Virus genome (UHGV): UHGV-0258858
Source of the DNA: a virus
Direction: 5' to 3' (one strand)
Length of the DNA stretch: 13,232 nucleotides
In this document: piece after piece, positions 1 to 10,808 of the stretch
Layout: every line of letters starts with the position of its first letter
Position numbering within the stretch: position 1 is the stretch's first letter
Translations under genes and position numbers: made by a program
The notes under the pieces: generated by a model
The model's database searches: none
What the model saw: the letters and a program-made list of their open reading frames with translations, nothing else
Told to the model about the DNA's origin: nothing

Positions 1-849
1 CTGGTCATCAAACCCTTTCGTTGCGGCCTCGTTCGCCGCCTGCAATGCCCCGGCTTCATCGCCGGAACGCTGCAACTGAGCAACATACGCAATCTGCTCT
101 GCCGTCACGTTACGGAACTGGCGCGCCATCGCCATCAGTCCCGACGTCGGGTCAGTGGCCAGCTTCCCGAAGGCTTCAGCGACTTTATCCACCTCCACAC
201 CGGATGCAGACGCAAAACGCGCGACACTCTGGTTAATGGCATCAAACTGTTCACCACCACGCACACCGGCATTCACCAGGGCTGCCAGTGACTCTCCCGC
301 CTGGTTAAACGTCAGCCCTGCTGCCTGCCCGGCTCTTGAGAGCGTCAGCATACGATCGGCAGTCAGTCCGGCCTGATTGCCGGAAAGGACCAGCGTTTTA
401 TTAAATTCTGAAAGCGTGGAATCCCCCTGGTACCAGGCGTACGCCAGCGCACCGGTCGCCACCGCCAGCGAGGTGACCCCGACCATCGGCAGGCTGATCG
501 CACCGGCAAGCCCCCTGAACATGGGGATCATCCCGCCGAAGGAGTCCTTCACCTGACCGCCCTGTTGCAGCAGGATGAGCCAGGGATTCTGACCACCGGC
601 AAGCTGCGTGGCGATATCCGTAAACTGTGCGGGCAGGGTACGCATGGCTGCTTTATACTGCCCGACGGAAATCCCGGCTTTTTGTGCGGCCAGCGCCTGA
701 CGGTTCAGACTCTGCTCAACGGCACCGGCGGTTTTTCTGGCGTCGGTATCCAGTCCTGAAAAATGACGCCTTACCCGGCTCATCTGCTCATCGAAACGGA
801 CAGCATCCAGACTCAGGTCAATAACAAGATCACCAACCGGCTGGGACAT
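1..849 (-). CDS. H: Tail tape measure protein (lambda gpH-like), N-terminal 283 codons; gene continues beyond the window start
   Basis: ATG at 849-847 preceded by GGAGG (minus strand GGAGGTGTGAGATATG). Translation MSQPVGDLVIDLSLDAVRFDEQMSRVRRHFSG...AANEAATKGFDDQ closely matches the lambda gpH N-terminus as recalled. Frame stays open to position 1. Start overlaps the end of the G-T frame by 20 nt. Confidence 0.9.
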   Translation of the reverse strand, partial: MSQPVGDLVIDLSLDAVRFDEQMSRVRRHFSGLDTDARKTAGAVEQSLNRQALAAQKAGISVGQYKAAMRTLPAQFTDIATQLAGGQNPWLILLQQGGQVKDSFGGMIPMFRGLAGAISLPMVGVTSLAVATGALAYAWYQGDSTLSEFNKTLVLSGNQAGLTADRMLTLSRAGQAAGLTFNQAGESLAALVNAGVRGGEQFDAINQSVARFASASGVEVDKVAEAFGKLATDPTSGLMAMARQFRNVTAEQIAYVAQLQRSGDEAGALQAANEAATKGFDDQ

Positions 850-1701
850 ATCTCACACCTCCGGAAATCCCCGCTGAAGCCATCATTAATGCAACATCAT
901 CCTCGCTGACATCCACCACATCTGCAGAAGGTGAAATATCGCCCCCTCCCTCCCCACCGAACCGGACGCCTCCGGCAAGTCCTGCCGCTTTCTGCATCAG
1001 CATGTCTTCCTCATCCGGCATCTCCGTCTGCGCTTCCTCTCGCCGGGGAGCCAGCAGACTGAAATCCGAGGGATGCATATCCGGATCGCAAAAAAACAGG
1101 CTGAGTACGGCGTACATCAGCCCGGAAAAATGCATATCCAGTTGGGTATCCTGAAAATAATGCGTGCGGTAAAAACGGTGCCAGTCGGCATATTCGGTGG
1201 ATGTCATCCCGGCAAGCATGGCGCGCCAGTCGGGTCTCCCCATCTCACGCGCCAGTCTGAGGGCAAAGTTCAGCTCGCCGTCGAAGACTTTCCCGCAGAA
1301 AAATCATCATCAGTAAGCACGTTATTTTTCGCCACTTCGGTGCTGTCAGTATCCGCATGAACAGCCCCGCTCATCCCGGACAGACGTAACACCACCTCTT
1401 CCGCCCGGGCAATGGCATCAGCCGGCCAGGTCGTCAGCACATCCTGTTCGATCTGCATCACGGCCTCATTCATTGACAGCAGCTGCACTTTCTCCGGATG
1501 GTTATGCCACAGGGACATCGCCACCAGAAACGCGCCGGTTCTGACAAGATCTTCCACACTCACCTGCAGGTTGCCGCTGGCTTCAGCCTCTTCTGCCCGC
1601 CGTTTCAGCAGGGCAAGATGCTCGATACGCTGCAGCGCAGACAGCTCCGAAAGCGTGACAGACACACCGTTATATTCAAATTGTTCTGTTTTAAGAAACA
1701 T
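830..1701 (-). CDS. T: Tail assembly chaperone G-T fusion product made by programmed -1 frameshift (lambda gpGT-like); T-domain frame runs 830..1294
   Basis: The -1 frame following the slippery site reads KVFDGELNFALRLAREMGRPDWRAMLAGMTSTEYADWHRFY...GGVRYVPAGW (tracked ORF 830..1243), matching the lambda gpT domain. It has no independent start near the slip site. Confidence 0.8.
1270..1701 (-). CDS. G: Tail assembly chaperone (lambda gpG-like), 143 aa
   Basis: ATG at 1701 preceded by AGGAGA at 7-nt spacing. Product MFLKTEQFEYNGVSVTLSELSALQRIEHLALL... aligns with lambda gpG along its length. The 6 codons upstream in the tracked ORF start from a GTG with no ribosome-binding site and are rejected. 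Confidence 0.9.
   Translation of the reverse strand: MFLKTEQFEYNGVSVTLSELSALQRIEHLALLKRRAEEAEASGNLQVSVEDLVRTGAFLVAMSLWHNHPEKVQLLSMNEAVMQIEQDVLTTWPADAIARAEEVVLRLSGMSGAVHADTDSTEVAKNNVLTDDDFSAGKSSTAS
1288..1294 (-). promoter_or_regulatory. Programmed -1 ribosomal frameshift slippery heptamer G GGA AAG at the G/T junction
   Basis: Minus-strand GCG GGA AAG sits 7 codons before the G stop, the same heptamer and position used for lambda G-T frameshifting. The T-domain frame is open immediately downstream in -1. Confidence 0.8.
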
Positions 1702-1722: not shown

Positions 1723-2811
1723 TTACGCGGCAGGGACATTAACGGTTACTGTCGCCAGAGCGACAAAATTACCGTTATCACTCATGACCACGACCGACGT
1801 TGTTCCTTTCTCAAGTGCGTTTACCGTCACTGTGTTCTCCTTCAACGTGGCTGTGGCCACCGCACGATGCACGGTCGACACCCTTAATGAAGGATCAGAC
1901 GCATTATCCGGCAACACAGCCACAGTAAGTGTGCCTGCCTTCCCTTTTTCTAGGGTCAGGGTTTCCGGTTTAATGGTCACACCGGAAACCGGCGTAATTT
2001 TAGTGAGATTTTCAGCCATCGACGGGCGTCCCACATTGGTAACTTTCACCGTTCTGGTGATCACTTCCTTCGCCGTCACGGCCTTACCGATACTGCTGAC
2101 CCAGCCACTGAACACATCCACCGTACCATTCGGGAACCGGATTTTATAGGCCCTGACATCCCCGCTTTCAAACCATGCGATAAGCCCTTTCTGACCTTTC
2201 TCACCCGGTTTCCAGGCCAGCGTAAAACTGGTATCACCTGCAGATTTCTGTCCCTGCCCGGTCGCGGTCCAGTCCGCGTCTTCATCATCCAGGTAGTTAT
2301 CATCGTAGGATTCAGCCGTCATCTCGCCCGGCGTCAGATCCTTCACCTTAGCCAGTCGCTGCCAGTCATCGTCTGACAACGGGTTTGCATAAGCATCAGC
2401 CTTGCCGTTGTAAACCCACAGAGTGGTACCGGCACCTTTTACCGGCTCCAGGGGATTTGGTGTTGCCATATCGTCATCACGATGATACTCATAGCCCTGC
2501 GTAACCATCGTGGTAATCAGTCCTGCCAGTGCCGGGATCGCAGTCATCGCCGGATAAATCCGGCTTTCCATCCACTGATCGAGCTCCGAATCAGGTACCT
2601 GTGCCGGTAAAAACACCTCAATATGCAGTGTGGCCCGCCAGGTATCTGCATCCAGCTCTTCACCGGTATACTCTGCATCCGTCAGATAAACCGCGATCGC
2701 AGGAAAATCCTCTTCGTCAAAAACAACGGGGCGACCATCAAACAGCGTCGCCCCGTGTTCATGCTGCTCGAGTGCATCCAGCACTGCGGCACGAATGTCA
2801 GTGTGTTTCAT
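1723..2811 (-). CDS. Single 362-codon ORF: tail terminator (lambda gpU-like, residues 1-114, 2470..2811) fused in frame to major tail protein with C-terminal Ig-like domain (lambda gpV-like, 248 aa, 1723..2469)
   Basis: N-terminus [28 protein letters not shown]...[10 protein letters not shown] matches lambda gpU residues 1-114. It is followed directly by [20 protein letters not shown]...VTVNVPAA, which matches lambda gpV from its initiator Met. There is no stop, intergenic spacer or ribosome-binding site between the two parts. The U start overlaps the Z stop (ATGA). Confidence 0.85.
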
Positions 2812-3341
2812 CGTTTTATCGCAATCCTCAGTTGTTGTTTCAGCGCGTATGCCAGTTCTTTAGGCAGGCGTTCACGCCGGATACGGTCAACATTCTCATC
2901 AAATGCCTGTTTCAGTGGGGCCGCCATCGGGATTTTCACCACATCAATGGGGTAACGGTTTTTCCCGGCCACACGCTGCATGACATGCCAGCGACCATTT
3001 TTTAATCGCTGAATAAATGCCCGCTGATACCGATGCTGACCGGCTTTAAGTATGCTGTTCGGGCGACGCCCCAGCATCCTGATCCCCAGCTTAATCACAG
3101 GGAGATCACCGCGGTTAACGATAATTCTGGCATTCGGATTTCTGACCGTCGCCCGTTTCAGTCTGGACCGTTCCTTAACCAGTTTCCGGCGAACCTTTGT
3201 CTCCCGGGCAACCTGTGACGAAGACTGATTAATCGCCGTTGTGGCCACGCGGTTAATCGTCATTGCTGAAGCCGCCGGAATGGCGTTTTTACGAACCCGG
3301 CTCAGATTATCAATCGCCTGATCAAGCCCTTTTATCGCCAT
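2808..3341 (-). CDS. Z: Tail completion protein (lambda gpZ-like), 177 aa
   Basis: [16 protein letters not shown]...[23 protein letters not shown]...[26 protein letters not shown]...[15 protein letters not shown] aligns with lambda gpZ. ATG at 3341 is preceded by AGGGTGA. Confidence 0.9.
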
Positions 3342-3356
3342 AATTTCACCCTGCGT

Positions 3357-3710
3357 TTATCGTCGCCGGTTAACAGCGGGTGGTTGCCCACGGTTGAGCC
3401 AGAGATAACAGCTTCCCCCGTCATCCGGAGAAACACGATCCACCCAGAACATCTCGCCGTTAATGGTCAGCGTGTCACCACGCTGCACGGCACGCACCGT
3501 ATCCGTCCGCACAAATAATGACGGGCTGCTTCCTTCAATACGGACCCCGCCACCGGCAAAACCCAGCGACTCCGGATCGTCAAAAACCCCCTGAACTTCG
3601 CTTCCACGCTGTGCTCCCGAGGTGAACTGCGCACAGAGCCCCATCACTTCAACAATCGTGCTGTCCACCCCGGCAAGGGCAGCATCAAAGGCATTCTGAA
3701 AATCACGCAT
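3357..3710 (-). CDS. FII: Head-tail joining protein (lambda gpFII-like), 117 aa
   Basis: MRDFQNAFDAALAGVD...GVFDDPESLGFAGGGVRIEGSSPSLFVRTDTVRAVQRGDTLTINGEMFWVDRVSPDDGGSCYLWLNRGQPPAVNRRR is near-identical in length and motif order to lambda gpFII. Confidence 0.92.
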   Translation of the reverse strand: MRDFQNAFDAALAGVDSTIVEVMGLCAQFTSGAQRGSEVQGVFDDPESLGFAGGGVRIEGSSPSLFVRTDTVRAVQRGDTLTINGEMFWVDRVSPDDGGSCYLWLNRGQPPAVNRRR

Positions 3711-3939
3711 GCTCAGCCGTTCCGTGCTGTATCATGGCTGTCGCCAGTGGTGATGGCACCATAACACGCATGCCCCGGTACGTCAGTTCAACGGGACGGC
3801 CTGTCTCCGGGCAATACCCCATCACATGCAGGCATTTCCGCACACGGACCGCTTTAACATCATCCGTAGCATCCGTGTTGTGCAACTGCTCACCATCGTC
3901 TGTGTGATTTTGATCAGCCCCGCTCTCATCAGAGTGCAT
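3703..3939 (-). CDS. FI: C-terminal portion of DNA-packaging protein FI (lambda gpFI-like), 78 aa, separated from the N-terminal portion by an in-frame TAA
   Basis: ATG at 3939 preceded by GGAGGG at about 6-nt spacing. Acidic linker-like N-terminus (SDESGADQNHTDDGEQLHNTDATDD) followed by a region resembling the lambda FI C-terminal domain. Same frame as the N-terminal piece. Confidence 0.6.
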   Translation of the reverse strand: MHSDESGADQNHTDDGEQLHNTDATDDVKAVRVRKCLHVMGYCPETGRPVELTYRGMRVMVPSPLATAMIQHGTAEHA

Positions 3940-3969
3940 AATGCCCTCCGGGGAAACAGCAAGCTCCTC

Positions 3970-4086
3970 TTACCACTCAGACACACGTTGAGCAATATCC
4001 GCAGCACTCCCCGACATATCCGCCTCTCGCCCCAGCAGGCCAGCCAGTTCACGAAGGCGATTCAGATTTTCTTCTTTTGTTGCCAT
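3970..4086 (-). CDS. FI: N-terminal portion of DNA-packaging protein FI (lambda gpFI-like), 38 aa, ended by an in-frame TAA
   Basis: ATG at 4086 preceded by AGGAGA at 7-nt spacing. MATKEENLNRLRELAGLLGREADMSGSAADIAQRVSEW resembles the lambda FI N-terminus (MTKDELIARLRSLGEQLNRD...LALRVAEL). TAA at 3970-3972. Not in the ORF track because it is shorter than the cut-off. Confidence 0.6.
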   Translation of the reverse strand: MATKEENLNRLRELAGLLGREADMSGSAADIAQRVSEW

Positions 4087-5607: not shown

Positions 5608-7113
5608 TCATGGCATGGCCATGAGCATTTTCACGTCCGCATCACCGTCTGCTGACGTCTGTGACACGCCACCCTGCACGGCTGCCGGTGAATGGTTCGC
5701 CATGAAATGTTCAAACAGGGCGGTTGTGGATGCAGAGACCGGTTCTGCTTTATCCGGCAATGAGGACAGAATGTCGCGGGCAGCCTCCACCGTCATTCCG
5801 GGAAACGCCGCCAGTTTTTCAGCCTGCGCCTCAGCCCCTTTTGCCTCATCCAGAGCCATAATCTGATCACGGAGTGAGGGTCCGGCATCCGCCTGCGGTG
5901 AAGCCGCCAGGATCGGGCGGGCTTTTTCCACCGTCATCTCCGGCATCGCCGCCAGCGTTGCCGCCAGTTGTTCACGACCTTTAGCCTCTTCACACGCCAT
6001 AATGCGATCGGCTTCACTCTGCGTGGATGCCACCGGCTGCTGTGGTGCTGCCGCGGTCAGAATCGCCCGGGCCTGTTCAACGCTCATGCCCTGTTGTCCT
6101 GCCAGCATCGTGGCAAGGTGTTCACGTCCTTTCGCTTCCTGACACGTCAGGATCCCCATCACTCGCTGGTTCTCCTGCGCGGCAGCTTCCGTTGCAGTTA
6201 ATTGCGGCATAGTGCCTCCTGTATCATGTGTGTTCAGCGCCGCAGCCATCACGCTGATGGCATCCGACGCATTGATTAATTCATCCGCCAGCCCGGCCTC
6301 AATGCCGGACTGACCTTCAAAAACGGCGGCCTCTGTTCCCGTGACTGCATCAACAGACAGACCGGTATACATCGCCACTTTTTCGGCAAACATCCGGCGC
6401 GCCGCATCAATCCGCTGCTGCATGTCCTGGCGAACCTCTTCCGGCAACGCTTCAAACCGATTGCCATCCACCTTGTGCGCCCCTGAGTAAATCAGCGTGA
6501 TATCCACACCGGCCTGCGCCAGATGACCGGCATAGCTGACATGGCTCATCATCACGCCAATGGAGCCGATACGGGATGTCTGGGTAACCAGCCGTCGGGA
6601 GCAGGCCGACGCCAGCAGCATGGCTGCAGAACAGGCCGTGTCATTGCACAGTGCCCAGACCGGCTTCTGCTGACGGAGGCGGTAAATCATGTCAGCACAG
6701 TCAAACGCACCGGCGGCCTGCCCGCCCGGACTGTCAATGTCCAGCAGTACACCCCGCACCTGGCTATCCGCCATTGCCTGCTGAAGACAGGCGACAATGC
6801 CGTCATAGCCTGTCATTCCGGAAAATGGCCGCATACCCCCCAGCCGGTGCACCAGCGTGCCTGTCACCGGCAGTACAGCAATACCGTTCACCACCCGGTA
6901 AACACGGGCCGGTCGTTTACCTCCGGCCATGTACTCGTCCGTTTCAGCCAGCATTCCGGGTGCATCAAGCTGTACCTGCTGTTGTGGTACCGAAAGACTT
7001 GCTGCCCCCATCTCGCGCCCGAGCGCGCAAAAGAAAACCCGCGCATAGGCGGGCTCCAGAAGCAGCGGTTCATTGAATGCTGCTGCAATAATGTGTGAAA
7101 GATTACGTCTCAC
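5608..7113 (-). CDS. C: Prohead protease / scaffold (lambda gpC-like, S49 ClpP-fold peptidase N-terminal domain with Nu3-like scaffolding C-terminal region), 501 codons from a GTG start
   Basis: N-terminal LSHIIAAAFNEPLLLEPAYARVFFCAL...VNGIAVLPV(T)GTLV...GMTGYDGI...LLDIDSPGG...AFDCAD...KPVWAL...SRRLVTQTSRIGSIGVMM...VDITLIYSGAHKVDGN aligns with lambda gpC. GTG at 7113 preceded by AGAGGAGA and overlapping the portal stop. Confidence 0.9.
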   Translation of the reverse strand: MRRNLSHIIAAAFNEPLLLEPAYARVFFCALGREMGAASLSVPQQQVQLDAPGMLAETDEYMAGGKRPARVYRVVNGIAVLPVTGTLVHRLGGMRPFSGMTGYDGIVACLQQAMADSQVRGVLLDIDSPGGQAAGAFDCADMIYRLRQQKPVWALCNDTACSAAMLLASACSRRLVTQTSRIGSIGVMMSHVSYAGHLAQAGVDITLIYSGAHKVDGNRFEALPEEVRQDMQQRIDAARRMFAEKVAMYTGLSVDAVTGTEAAVFEGQSGIEAGLADELINASDAISVMAAALNTHDTGGTMPQLTATEAAAQENQRVMGILTCQEAKGREHLATMLAGQQGMSVEQARAILTAAAPQQPVASTQSEADRIMACEEAKGREQLAATLAAMPEMTVEKARPILAASPQADAGPSLRDQIMALDEAKGAEAQAEKLAAFPGMTVEAARDILSSLPDKAEPVSASTTALFEHFMANHSPAAVQGGVSQTSADGDADVKMLMAMP

Positions 7114-8695
7114 GTGGTGTTGTCTCCTCTTCCGGCCTGCGACTCTCCGCTATCTGCTGCTGATACGCCTGCACTATCCACACCGGACGTGAGAGTCCGG
7201 CTTTTTCCCGCTCTGCAGATTCCCTGACCTGCTGGCGGAAAATGTCCTGATAATCCTCGCCCATCAGCGCCAGCTCTTTCTCATACGTGCTCAGTCCGGC
7301 CTCAATGCGCATCACTGATTCCTGAACCTCCTTGAGCCCGTCAATGGCCATTCTTCCGGCTCCAATCCACTCAGCCCGTGACCAGGCTGATCGCGCCTGA
7401 TAAAAATCAAAACGTGCCCGTGGCGGACGAATAATCCCCCGAAGAAGTGCCTCTTCCAGCCAGCAGGAAAACATCTGCGTGGCCAGCCGGGACGCAATAA
7501 ATTTTCGCCGCCCCATAAAATAGCGCCACGACTCATTGGCGGATGCGCGGGCACTTGAATAACTGACCTTCGAGTAATCACGGGACAACTGTTCGTAGGA
7601 AACGCCAAGACCGGCGGCGATATACCGCAGCAGCGCCTGTTCAAGCGCCGAAAATCCATTGTCTGAATCCTGCGCGGTCTGAAGTTTCAGATCATCACCG
7701 GGGAAAAGGTGCGGAATTTTGACACCGCCCAGCGTCACGCTATTCGTGTCATACCAGGTGGAGAACTTATCCAGAATATTAATAAGCGGATTATCCTTCT
7801 GCCCCTGCGGCGCACCGGCGATATATTCAAAGGCCTTTTCGGTATCAAGGTCACTTTCAATCGTCGCTGCATACATCGCCTTCACTATGGCCGACTGAAG
7901 CTGTGTTGCCTGCAGGGAATCCAGCATCTTCAGCCGTTCCATAACGCTGTAAAACTGATTGGCTCCACGGGTCTGCCCGTCCTCCACCGGCTCGAAAATA
8001 TGCAGCATGGCCGGACGCCCGGTGGGAAGTTCACGCGGGATCCGTTCCCATCGTCCACTCCCGGAGCGAGGAAAATCATCCTCACAGATATGGTACGCAA
8101 CGGCACGGCCATATCGATCAACCTCCACACCGGCCCGCAGAAAACGGTTCCCGATACCGTGTCCTGGCGTGTCCACCCGTTTCGGACTCACGGCTTTAAA
8201 ACGCGTACGAAACAGTTGCGTGCTCTCCGTATCCCAGACCGGCTGCACAAAGATTTCGCCGTTAAACGCATGAACGCCCACACCTTCACGGATAAATTCC
8301 GTAAACGTGCGTTTCCCTTCCACGTCGATCTCACCAAACATCCCTTCTGCGTATTCTGACCAGGCCGCCTCCACCTCATCGACAAAACTTTTTGCCGCGG
8401 TCTCCCGCATCCCCAGCCAGCGCCAGTTCGGACGGTAGCTAATCAGAAACATATGCCCGACAATGTGATCCTTATGCAGGGCCACCGCATTGGCCGCTAT
8501 TCCGTTATTGCGCACCAGATCATCTGCACGGGCATTCCCCAGACGCAACGCGGGCAGCAGGGCCGCATCGGCACTCTGCGAGGGTGGCAACCACTCTGCC
8601 ATTTGCCCGCCAAATCCTGCGCCGCCCCCGTTGTAGCTTAGGCTCTCCCGAAGCGGAACGCCGTTCACATCAATCAGGACAGGCGTTCGTTTCAT
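7103..8695 (-). CDS. B: Portal protein (lambda gpB-like), 530 aa
   Basis: MKRTPVLI...FEPVEDGQTRGANQFYSVMERLKMLDSLQATQLQSAIVKAMYAATIESDLD...SYEQLSRDYSKVSYSSARASANESW...RMAIDGLKEVQESVMRIEAGLSTYEKE is collinear with lambda gpB (533 aa). Confidence 0.95.
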   Translation of the reverse strand: MKRTPVLIDVNGVPLRESLSYNGGGAGFGGQMAEWLPPSQSADAALLPALRLGNARADDLVRNNGIAANAVALHKDHIVGHMFLISYRPNWRWLGMRETAAKSFVDEVEAAWSEYAEGMFGEIDVEGKRTFTEFIREGVGVHAFNGEIFVQPVWDTESTQLFRTRFKAVSPKRVDTPGHGIGNRFLRAGVEVDRYGRAVAYHICEDDFPRSGSGRWERIPRELPTGRPAMLHIFEPVEDGQTRGANQFYSVMERLKMLDSLQATQLQSAIVKAMYAATIESDLDTEKAFEYIAGAPQGQKDNPLINILDKFSTWYDTNSVTLGGVKIPHLFPGDDLKLQTAQDSDNGFSALEQALLRYIAAGLGVSYEQLSRDYSKVSYSSARASANESWRYFMGRRKFIASRLATQMFSCWLEEALLRGIIRPPRARFDFYQARSAWSRAEWIGAGRMAIDGLKEVQESVMRIEAGLSTYEKELALMGEDYQDIFRQQVRESAEREKAGLSRPVWIVQAYQQQIAESRRPEEETTPRET

Positions 8696-8896
8696 AACCT
8701 CACTCCCAGCGGACGACGGCGACGGCGGGTTGTCCCCAGTACCGACTCCGCATCATTGAGCCCGGTTAAGCTCATCCAGAGAAGCTGCCGTATATTCAAT
8801 TCTGCGACCATCTTTCTGGACAGACACCACCCGTTTACCGGTTAATAAATCAAGGCGCGCCTGACGCAGCGCCTGCAGTTCAGCGACTGTAACCAT
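8692..8896 (-). pseudogene. W: Head-tail joining protein W (lambda gpW-like) split across two reading frames by an apparent frameshift
   Basis: Frame a: ATG at 8896 (GGAGGAG ribosome-binding site) gives [47 protein letters not shown], then a stop at 8753-8755; this matches lambda gpW residues about 4-50. Frame b (+1): ...[21 protein letters not shown] ends in a TGA that overlaps the portal ATG (ATGA) and matches the lambda gpW C-terminus (...[21 protein letters not shown]). One gene, two frames. Confidence 0.6.
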
Positions 8897-10808
8897 TCAC
8901 TCCTCCGGACAGCTTCGCTGCCAGTTCTTTAAGGGTTGGCCGGGTCGTCTCTTCTTCCCGGGATTTTGCCAGTACAGCCAGATCAAGCTGCCAGCGTTGC
9001 ACGGACACACGTAATGCCGCGTAGGCATACACCAGGCAGTCCAGCGCTTCGTTACGCCGCTTTTTGTTATCCCACAGCAGACGCATCTTTCCTTTTTCCC
9101 ACTTCTCCACAAGCTCTTCCGCCACCAGTTGCTGCGCCTCTGTCTGCGAAAAAATCTCCGGATCATCAGGAAAACGGATGGCATACGACGTGGCTTCATC
9201 CGCAGGCGTGGGATCGGCTTTCATACGGGCATAGAGAATTTCTTTTGCGGTGTCCGTCCCCACTTCGCACAGATACACGCCCCGCTGATTGCGGGTTTTT
9301 GGCATGGTGATCACCGGCTTGCCATAAACAGATGCACCTTTTACCGGCAGCCCCCGGAAAACACCGTGTTTTTTTGACCTCTGATAGACAATTTCGCCAT
9401 CGATCCCCCCGGTGTCCCAGCAGACACGGGAAATGGTCATTTCGGTTCCGTCTGCATGGCGGTATTTTTTGTTGATCGCCACATCCACACGTAACAGCGT
9501 CTCTTCCTCATCGGGACGCCCCATAATGATGATTTTATCCACCAGAAAGGCTTCCTCTCCCGGAGCCCATCCCCAGACATACATCTCAAAACGGTTTCGC
9601 TGCGAGTCAATGCCCGCCGTCAGATAAACCACCCGGGCAGGCACCGCCGCCGTGTAACGCACAACCTTATCCATCAGTACCTGGTGATCGAGTTTTTCGC
9701 CCACGGCCTCTTCCCAGGTCTCGCCCAGCGTGGTGTTCACAAAGGTTTTCAGGCCGTTGGGATCTTTCAGTGCATCCAGCCAGTCATAGACAATCTGTAC
9801 CCAGGTGGTGAACGGACTGTACGCCGTCCAGATATGGAATGTGATGGAGCGCGGCGGCGGAATTTCATTACCCGCAGCGCTGAAAAACGTCAGGCCGTCA
9901 CGGGTCCACATGCCCGTGTTTTCACAGATCCACCGCCCGTTGCTCTGGTCAAGATCAGACTGATGGATCACGCAGCCATGATGTTCACAGAGGTAGAAAA
10001 CACTTTCTGGACTGTCCTTCTCCCATTTAAGGCCAAAAGGCGTGGACTCATCGCCAAATTTCAGATACTGCGCCTCCCCACAGTGTGGGCAGGGCACATA
10101 AAAACGCATGAAATGCGCCGACTCGTTGGCCGCTTTTTCGATCTGGCAGGAGCCTTTTATTTTAGGCGTCGAGCCGCGAATGGATTTTGGCCATACCGAG
10201 CCCTCAATACGCTTATCCCCCAGCAGGGTTGGCGAGCCCTCTTTTTCGACATCCGGCTCGAACGAGGAAAGTTCGTCATAGCAGACCACGTCCACGGATT
10301 TTTCACGGTAGTTTTTTGCTGCCGCACCACCCAGGCACCAGAAGCCCACCCCCGATGAAAAGCGTTTCAGCGTGAGAGTATTGTCACGATGTTTACGACC
10401 CAGCCACGGGGAAAGATCTTTCAGGCATGGCACGTCCCGAATCGTCGCCTCCACGTGAGACTTCATAAAATCTTCAGCGGCAGAATCCGTGGGCTGAAAA
10501 AGCAGACTGTTTCGGGATTTATGCTCAATAAAATACCCGGCGACTCCCAGCAACATCTTTGTATAGCCAACACGGGCAGATTTAATCAGATTAACAGTGC
10601 GGATCTGATCATTCCCCATACTGTTCATGATGGCGATCTGGAACGGCAGCGTTTTCCATTCGCCGTCACCGTATGAGGATTCTTTCGGCAGATAATAATA
10701 CTGGTCAGCCCATTCAACTGCCGTCATCGGTACAACCCTGACCAGAGGCTGCAGCGCAACCGAAACGGCGGCCACCATATTATTCAGTTGTTGCTCTGAT
10801 ATATTCAT
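8880..10808 (-). CDS. A: Terminase large subunit (lambda gpA-like), 642 aa
   Basis: [10 protein letters not shown]...[37 protein letters not shown]...[32 protein letters not shown]...[26 protein letters not shown]...CPHCGE.QYLKFGD...[18 protein letters not shown]...[11 protein letters not shown]...KRRNEALDC is collinear with lambda gpA (641 aa). Start chosen by alignment; the 19-codon upstream extension in the tracked ORF overlaps Nu1 and is rejected. Start overlaps the Nu1 3' end by 29 nt, as in lambda. Confidence 0.95.

Follow-up and report, generated by a model that had tools for sequence, protein, structure and literature searches.

The DNA analysed here, hereafter the window, is a stretch of 13,232 nucleotides from the virus genome UHGV-0258858. 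According to the ORF list and the Pfam assignments of an identical contig, all of its long open reading frames (ORFs) lie on the minus strand and follow the order of the lambda late operon, namely lysozyme, Rz/Rz1, Nu1, A, W, B, C, D, E, FI, FII, Z, a fusion ORF, G, T, and the start of H. The coordinates of the features discussed below are summarized in Table 1.

Table 1. Features of the lambda-like late region discussed in the text, with positions in the window.
Feature	Position	Strand	Basis and remarks
W (head-tail adaptor), remnant	8753..8896	minus	2-bp deletion near 8760; frame shifts after residue 46; 47 aa versus 68
FI (DNA-packaging protein), split	3703..4086	minus	TAA at 3970-3972 (GAA in NCTC9112); 38-aa N-terminal fragment and 78-aa C-terminal ORF
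Z (tail completion protein), intact	2808..3341	minus	ORF list; PF06763 in the identical contig; overlaps the fusion start
U(deltaC)-V fusion ORF	1723..2811	minus	ORF list; Pfam PF06141, PF16461 and PF02368; exact protein on at least 6 metagenome contigs
U-derived part, codons 1-114 of 131	2470..2811	minus	lambda gpU match; own Shine-Dalgarno sequence; start overlaps the Z stop (ATGA)
Deletion junction, surviving 11-nt repeat copy GACGATATGGC	2465..2475	minus	contains the V ATG at 2469-2467
V-derived part, complete, 248 codons and stop	1723..2469	minus	tail-tube domain and C-terminal Ig-like Big_2
G (tail assembly chaperone), intact	1270..1701	minus	slippery site GGGAAAG at 1288-1294 for the G-T frameshift
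T	830-1243		

The fusion ORF encodes a protein of 362 aa, followed by a stop codon at 1723-1725. A preliminary description of this DNA had claimed that the tail terminator gene U is joined here in frame to the tail tube gene V, that a V-type ATG lies in frame with U, and that the product would be about 39 kDa in size. The ORF list, BLASTP, and Pfam confirmed the ORF exactly as claimed, the V ATG was located within it, and the calculated mass was 39.2 kDa. In a BLASTP comparison with lambda proteins, residues 1-114 of the fusion were 79% identical to residues 1-114 of gpU, and residues 115-357 were 67% identical to residues 1-243 of gpV; the V part was also 98% identical to P0002, the representative of a cluster of 248-aa V proteins. 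The Pfam domain Phage_tail_U (PF06141) was detected with 177 bits against a cut-off of 25, and the match covered only positions 1-118 of the 130-position profile, whereas the intact relative covered positions 1-130. Together with the alignment, this result indicated that the gpU-family domain is incomplete in the fusion, with the C-terminal residues 115-131 deleted. In contrast, the V domains are complete, as the tube domain Phage_TTP_12 (PF16461) matched over positions 1-135 of 135 with 231 bits, and Big_2 matched with 42 bits.

The preliminary description had also noted that the V ATG has no ribosome-binding site, and this was borne out by the predicted pairing with the 3' end of 16S rRNA. 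The pairing energy at the V start was +0.3 kcal/mol in the window, compared with -5.9 kcal/mol (UGAGGA) in the intact relative, while seven other gene starts in the window ranged from -3.9 to -9.0 kcal/mol. Unlike an independently translated protein with a free N-terminus, the V part has lost its own ribosome-binding site, and its ATG is internal to the U frame. These predictions suggest that the V ATG would be used only weakly as a start of its own, although some Shine-Dalgarno-independent initiation may take place there. Since the start of U keeps a good Shine-Dalgarno sequence (-5.9 kcal/mol) and its overlap with the Z stop, the chimera is expected to be made at U-like levels, and ribosomes starting at this site would produce a 39-kDa U(1-114)-V(1-248) protein.

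Alignment to three intact relatives revealed a single clean gap of 61 bp at the junction and no other junction change. The missing segment comprises the last 17 codons of U (residues 115-131, MALWSSADLTYSITYEM, all absent from the window lineage), the U stop codon, and the V ribosome-binding site. A deletion of roughly 60 bp had been proposed from comparison with lambda; the deletion itself was confirmed by the alignment, and its size was corrected to exactly 61 bp. The accompanying proposal that the last 17 or so residues of U, its stop codon, and the U-V spacer had been lost was likewise upheld, both by the alignment to the intact relatives and by BLASTP against lambda, in which the gpU match ends at residue 114 of 131.

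In the intact relatives, an 11-bp direct repeat, GACGATATGGC, flanks the missing segment on both sides. The two copies in the intact alleles, GTGATGACGATATGGC and GTGAGGACGATATGGC, are identical at 15 of 16 positions, share an identical core of 11 nt, and are separated by 61 nt from start to start. The length of the deletion is equal to this spacing, and one hybrid copy of the repeat is left in the window, where the fused junction reads GTGATGACGATATGGCAACACC. The first copy corresponds to U codons 113-116 (GAC GAT ATG GCG, encoding D-D-M-A), and the second consists of the tail of the V Shine-Dalgarno sequence, the spacer, the ATG, and the second codon (GA GGA CGA TAT GGC A). The 11-bp repeat was not found in lambda itself, and it was conserved as a pair in the EC2, NCTC9112, IAI39, and L019 allele types. 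Slippage or template switching between short direct repeats is an established process that deletes one repeat spacing and keeps one copy, and one example of such deletions in E. coli has reportedly been published. Because the deletion length equals the repeat spacing, one copy is kept, and the crossover falls inside the 11-nt core, the deletion appears to be repeat-mediated. Read in this way, the 61-bp loss bears the usual mark of an exchange at direct repeats, whether by slippage, by template switching, or by short-homology recombination, and the sequence is compatible with each of these pathways. The ancestor would have carried an allele of the EC2/NCTC9112/PhiR5_1 type, in which U codons 113-116 happened to repeat the start region of V. 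One slippage, template-switch, or short-homology recombination event between the two copies would then have removed the 61 bp, placing V in frame with U and depriving U of its final 17 residues and stop codon and V of its Shine-Dalgarno sequence.

To place the fusion allele among its relatives, 5,426 complete E. coli genomes and 50,697 phage records were searched. Thirteen E. coli genomes and five phage records matched the whole ORF at 98.6-99.8% identity, and all of these matches spanned 1150 bases for the query of 1089 bases, that is, 61 bases more. The closest relatives of the U-V region were the prophages of E. coli NCTC9112 and EC2 and the phages PhiR5_1, PhiR12_1, _2, _4, and _5 (99.1-99.8% nucleotide identity), and in the annotation of the matching records, U (131 aa) and V (248 aa) are two distinct proteins. 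No identifiable publication on the PhiR phages emerged from a search of the literature. The fusion junction was not found in any of the complete genomes or phage records searched. When the counts were restricted to records with this type of U-V region, the fusion was present in 0 of 71 matching phage records and in 0 of approximately 1,635 complete E. coli genomes, all of which keep the 61 bp. A contiguous U-V frame in intact relatives, which would have spoken for a natural fusion in this lineage rather than a deletion, was thus seen in none of these phage records or genomes. Likewise, a 32-mer spanning the junction had no exact match in the GTDB representative genomes, IMG/VR, or the JGI metagenomes, and the U-V weld allele was not found in literature searches, which were not aimed at U-V fusions.

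The exact fusion protein was found through an exact-protein index, and it occurred only in Logan and ENA assemblies, on five contigs by cluster look-up and on at least six by exact protein. The window itself is 100% identical to the ENA metagenome contig ERZ27281170 k141_1491. Altogether, the identical junction was present in nine independent metagenome samples (ERZ27281170, ERZ28616250, ERZ27958133, ERZ28617216, SRR7351995, ERZ28631070, ERZ917635, ERZ27263511, and ERZ925135). The contigs bearing the fusion differ from the window by 0 to 1.2% in their flanks and represent at least four flanking haplotypes; all are 13.3 kb or shorter, none reaching a chromosome junction. Their naming styles vary, including k141, k119, and k127 names, "-scaffold_" records, and Logan contigs. 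In the protein clustering, the fusion protein sits in a cluster of 486 members made up of ordinary 248-aa V proteins. The fusion allele is rare, compared with hundreds of contigs for the normal V allele.

We also asked how often U and V domains occur together elsewhere. In a library of 5.8 billion proteins, a few other proteins carried both domains, each arising from a different lesion. One of them (P0018), encoded on a single lambda-like contig, results from a 37-bp deletion at a CGAT microhomology at the same boundary, and another (P0026) results from a larger deletion extending into V. In three more (P0027, P0030, and P0045), a frameshift leads the reading from U into V; P0027 is encoded in three assemblies, all with a split portal gene and two of them with a split tape-measure gene as well, probably owing to indel errors. 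In a library of 1.84 billion representatives clustered at 50% identity, none of the best 150 matches spanned both halves of the fusion. Odd long matches in this library were unrelated chimeras. A natural U-V fusion family was rejected, as the 90% and 50% protein libraries gave only one-off lesions and unrelated chimeras. As far as these sequence collections indicate, a terminator-tube fusion is not an evolved architecture, either in viable phages or in a conserved lineage.

The U-V deletion is not the only lesion in the window. Compared with its nearest relative, NCTC9112, the window shows 44 differences, consisting of 41 substitutions and three indels; the indels are the 61-bp U-V deletion, the 2-bp deletion in W, and a 1-bp terminase frameshift that belongs to NCTC9112 itself. 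The lesions of the window are accordingly three, the U-V deletion, the FI nonsense codon, and the W frameshift, and phage isolates keep all three genes intact. The W frameshift allele was detected on 15 contigs, and at least 24 contigs carried the FI nonsense allele. The truncated W allele was present in 0 of 19 matching phage records, all of which keep a W gene of 207 bases. When the 205-base W gene was used as a query, no match above 99.0% was obtained in the complete E. coli genomes, and every match listed spanned 207 bases. All three lesions occur together in the window contig and in contig L014, and also in sample SRR7351995, across two contigs. Two contigs (L023 and L024) combine the fusion and the FI nonsense codon with an intact W, and one (L019) carries the FI nonsense codon with intact W, U, and V. 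The FI nonsense codon was present in every fusion contig that covers FI, and the W frameshift was present in a subset. This distribution suggests the order FI nonsense codon, U-V deletion, and W frameshift, the first place of FI following from L019, in which the nonsense codon accompanies intact U and V genes. The U-V lesion would therefore have arisen in a prophage lineage already bearing the FI nonsense codon, with the W frameshift added later in the sub-lineage of the window.

Whether the deletion arose once or several times was considered next. The repeat pair is found in more than a thousand prophage alleles and in all four allele types mentioned above, the fusion alleles lie on different flanking haplotypes, and a separate microhomology deletion (that of P0018) has occurred at the same boundary, all of which would be expected if the site were a hot spot at which the same 61 bp had been lost repeatedly and independently. 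However, all fusion alleles share EC2/NCTC9112-type bases beside the junction, e.g., an A at window position 2483, and the same FI nonsense codon wherever FI is covered. Moreover, the variants of the L006 and L007 haplotypes were found in no intact allele of the complete genomes, nor was there an exact intact counterpart for the L023 variants, and the deletion itself was absent from all of the approximately 1,635 complete genomes that bear the repeat. Independent recurrence is consequently unlikely, and these sequences are most simply explained by one deletion event and later mosaic recombination. Mosaic recombination among lambdoid prophages is said to be the subject of one published study. 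Such recombination has been documented for lambdoid prophages (PMC2669165), and a trace of it can be recognized here, since four of the five differences of L023 form one tract (window 2593-2554) that is identical to the intact IAI39-type allele. After the single event, the lineage would have been inherited vertically and remodelled by recombination with further lambdoid prophages of E. coli in the human gut. The fusion haplotypes differ from each other at nine sites of the ORF, nine of them synonymous and none nonsynonymous. Selection on the chimera was considered as a cause of this pattern and rejected, because the L023 tract represents imported polymorphism that had already been filtered by selection.

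In classical lambda genetics, mutants in V are tailless, and mutants in U produce inactive polytails of excessive length. The fold of gpU takes up all 131 residues and consists of an antiparallel sheet of five strands with two flanking helices; three of the strands precede residue 68, and the E-loop (residues 45-58) contacts gpV (PMC10721106). The N- and C-terminal loops of gpV make the ring-to-ring contacts, and terminal loops also take part in the U-V contacts (PMC10721106). The terminator of T5 has its C-terminus within the interface between subunits, and adding a tag at this end leads to aberrant polymerisation (PMC11784142). An AlphaFold2 model of the fusion, built from an alignment of 19 sequences, had a mean pLDDT of only 58.6, with values below 50 over almost all of residues 1-128, a quality too low to bear on the folding of the truncated U; within this poor model the helices extend up to approximately residue 104. 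Because three strands precede residue 68 and the helices of this model reach about residue 104, we infer that the last two strands of U lie in residues 105-131, so that the deletion would take the final strand. The U part, without its last beta-strand and with no free C-terminus, would not form the terminator hexamer, the cap that stops tube growth and binds gpFII, while the V part would carry a 114-residue extension at its N-terminus, where the N-terminal arm of V makes ring-to-ring contacts. On this analysis, the chimera would not be expected to work as a terminator or to serve as a normal tube subunit, and little free V would be available. The prophage would then be unable to build normal tails alone and, as W and FI are damaged too, should need co-resident prophages to form particles.

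Some observations could be taken to mean that the fusion is tolerated or even functional, in a phage kept viable by internal initiation of V with the chimera serving as both last tube ring and terminator, or by U and V supplied in trans. The allele has persisted on several haplotypes and in several samples, its ORF differing among them at synonymous sites only, E. coli genomes carry about two such U-V loci (a median of two places per genome), and co-resident lambdoid prophages of O157 Sakai complement each other's morphogenetic defects (PMC2669165). On the other side, the fusion was found in no viable phage isolate, and the five isolates at 99% identity or above keep separate genes. V has no Shine-Dalgarno sequence and U presumably no C-terminal strand, the fusion is accompanied by the FI nonsense codon in every contig that allows the check and often by the W frameshift as well, and the synonymous-only pattern is accounted for by the imported recombination tract. 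Complementation in trans, for its part, would rescue the particle and would not make the fusion functional. A tolerated or working fusion in a viable phage is therefore improbable, somewhat more so than a repeated origin of the deletion.

It is very improbable that the junction is a sequencing or assembly artefact, with separate U and V genes in the real DNA and 61 bp lost in assembly. The window is indeed a metagenome contig, its allele is missing from all complete E. coli genomes and phage records searched, and the junction 32-mer is missing from the GTDB, IMG/VR, and JGI collections. Nevertheless, the same junction recurs in nine samples, under differing styles of contig name and on at least four flanking haplotypes. 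A repeat much shorter than the k-mer does not collapse a de Bruijn graph, and the 11-bp repeat is far below the k-mers of 119-141 implied by the contig names. Because the identical junction is present in nine independent assemblies, a stop codon and a ribosome-binding site between U and V in the real DNA are unlikely.

Equally hard to credit is an exaptation in which the chimera has been kept as a dominant-negative tube subunit that poisons the tails of related superinfecting or co-resident lambdoid phages, the late operon being trans-activated by a compatible Q: the ORF is open across all haplotypes, the complete V domain could co-polymerise, and the C-terminally modified T5 terminator does polymerise aberrantly (PMC11784142), but there is no sign of selection beyond the imported synonymous polymorphism, the allele is rare, and the neighbouring genes are decaying too. 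There is accordingly only a very slight chance that the chimera, upon infection by a related phage or induction of a co-resident one, co-polymerises through its V domain and blocks or derails the tube growth of related phages; if it did, it would constitute a prophage-encoded defence by assembly interference, and only with such a dominant-negative effect on related phages would the fusion have greater importance.

Taken together, these data make it highly probable that a repeat-mediated 61-bp deletion has produced a U/V pseudogene fusion in the late region of a lambda-like E. coli prophage, as a stage in the decay of a prophage without normal tails of its own. The window has the makeup of a decaying lambdoid prophage, that is, a late operon in lambda order in which genes that are intact in viable close relatives bear inactivating lesions. 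Such events are familiar, and the prophage decay seen here is ordinary; the appropriate annotation for the 362-aa ORF is a U/V pseudogene fusion in a defective prophage rather than a novel tail protein. The finding is of value mainly for annotation and bookkeeping, and it offers a clean natural gene weld by slippage at an 11-bp repeat made of coding sequence and a ribosome-binding site. In addition, the FI nonsense codon, the U-V deletion, and the W frameshift provide a short dated succession of decay steps in a prophage, which can be traced across human-gut metagenomes.

Compared with lambda gpU (PDB 1Z1Z, 3FZ2, and 3FZB; PF06141), the fusion is alike over its first 114 residues and occupies the same gene place after Z, with the same overlapping ATGA start. 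Unlike gpU, it has no U stop of its own and none of residues 115-131, which are inferred to hold the last beta-strand of the five-strand sheet, and its C-terminus runs on covalently into V. Compared with lambda gpV (PF16461 and Big_2), the V part is full-length with both domains whole; unlike gpV, it lacks its own Shine-Dalgarno sequence and follows 114 U residues in the same reading frame. Among the sister alleles of NCTC9112, EC2, and the PhiR phages, NCTC9112 is 99.7% identical over the whole 13.2 kb and has the same gene order, but all of them keep the 61 bp and separate U and V genes, and their W and FI genes are intact. The sporadic fusions P0018, P0026, and P0027/P0030/P0045 resemble the window in having U and V in one ORF, whereas their lesions differ and none is common to the window lineage. 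With respect to deletions between short direct repeats in E. coli, nothing is mechanistically different here, as the length equals the spacing, one copy is kept, and the crossover falls in the identical core. Finally, the window resembles the defective lambdoid Sp prophages of O157 Sakai in its multiple small morphogenetic lesions, lambda gene order, mosaic recombination, and possible complementation in trans (PMC2669165), and it differs from them in that its lesion is an in-frame weld of U to V.

The U-V fusion, which joins the tail terminator U to the tail tube protein V, and the nonsense codon in FI, the DNA-packaging protein gene, were detected only in ENA and Logan metagenome assemblies, on the contigs L004-L008, L012, L014, L015 and L019-L025, which carry one or both. 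The third lesion, a frameshift in W, which encodes the head-tail adaptor, was found in metagenome assemblies and in one NCBI assembly, on a contig of 3.47 Mb (GCA_964040045.1). A search of 5,426 complete E. coli genomes found none of the three lesions. The positions of the FI and W lesions, together with other features discussed here, are listed in the table.

The FI nonsense codon, carried by at least 24 contigs (35 index blocks), was more widely distributed than either of the other lesions. It was observed both with and without the U-V fusion, and every contig bearing it was shorter than 20 kb. The TAA ends the N-terminal fragment of FI after 38 aa, and a second ORF of 78 aa, starting at an internal ATG, spans the C-terminal domain.

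The 2-bp deletion in W cuts its product to 47 aa, and the identical 47-aa protein was encoded on 15 contigs. These contigs include the 3.47-Mb contig and L009-L011 and L013, prophages in which FI, U and V are all intact and the Z (tail completion protein) and V alleles differ. The truncated allele was absent from all 19 phage records, and its best match among the complete E. coli genomes was at most 99.0%. The occurrence of this allele across such different prophage backgrounds could reflect either recombination or recurrence.

The closest complete-genome relative, the NCTC9112 prophage, carries a 1-bp insertion at position 6858 of its locus L003 (approximately 9376 of the window) in its terminase large-subunit gene, which is annotated as "frameshifted". 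Unlike in NCTC9112, the terminase gene of the window is intact at this site, and the two relatives thus carry different lesions.

Features of the window and of other U-V fusion loci.
Feature	Locus	Coordinates	Strand	Details
FI nonsense codon	window	3970-3972	minus	GAA to TAA; fragments 3970-4086 and 3703-3939
W frameshift	window	8753-8896	minus	2-bp deletion near 8760; GCGATCAAT to GCTCAAT
Slippery heptamer GGGAAAG near G 3' end	window	1288-1294	minus	
P0018, in-frame U-V weld	L027, lambda-like contig (ENA ERZ28656739)	579-1685		37-bp deletion at 4-bp CGAT microhomology
P0027, 384-aa U-V read-through fusions	L028-L030, Gifsy-like prophage (GCA_020556355.1, GCA_020556385.1, GCA_020556345.1)	8001-9155		

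The database proteins P0018 and P0027 also contain the U and V domains in one ORF. The junction of P0018 (...AGLWSSAD followed directly by MPVPNP...) arose in an event independent of the window fusion, showing that more than one microhomology deletion can strike the region between the U 3' end and the V start. In P0027 the fusion results from a frameshift located at the 3' end of U. The portal gene is split in all three P0027 assemblies, the tape-measure gene in two and the protease-capsid gene in one, with differing break sites; these splits look like long-read indel error rather than biology.

Contig L005 has the same U-V fusion as the window. Its G gene (tail assembly chaperone) differs from that of the window at 32 positions in about 180 bp (1315-1495), half of them nonsynonymous, and a further dense cluster of differences lies in H (640-754). 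Both clusters, with the fusion upstream of them, are typical of mosaic recombination tracts with another lambdoid allele as the source. In the window, the tail chaperone pair appears intact, and the GGGAAAG heptamer near the 3' end of G resembles the site of the programmed -1 frameshift of lambda G-T.
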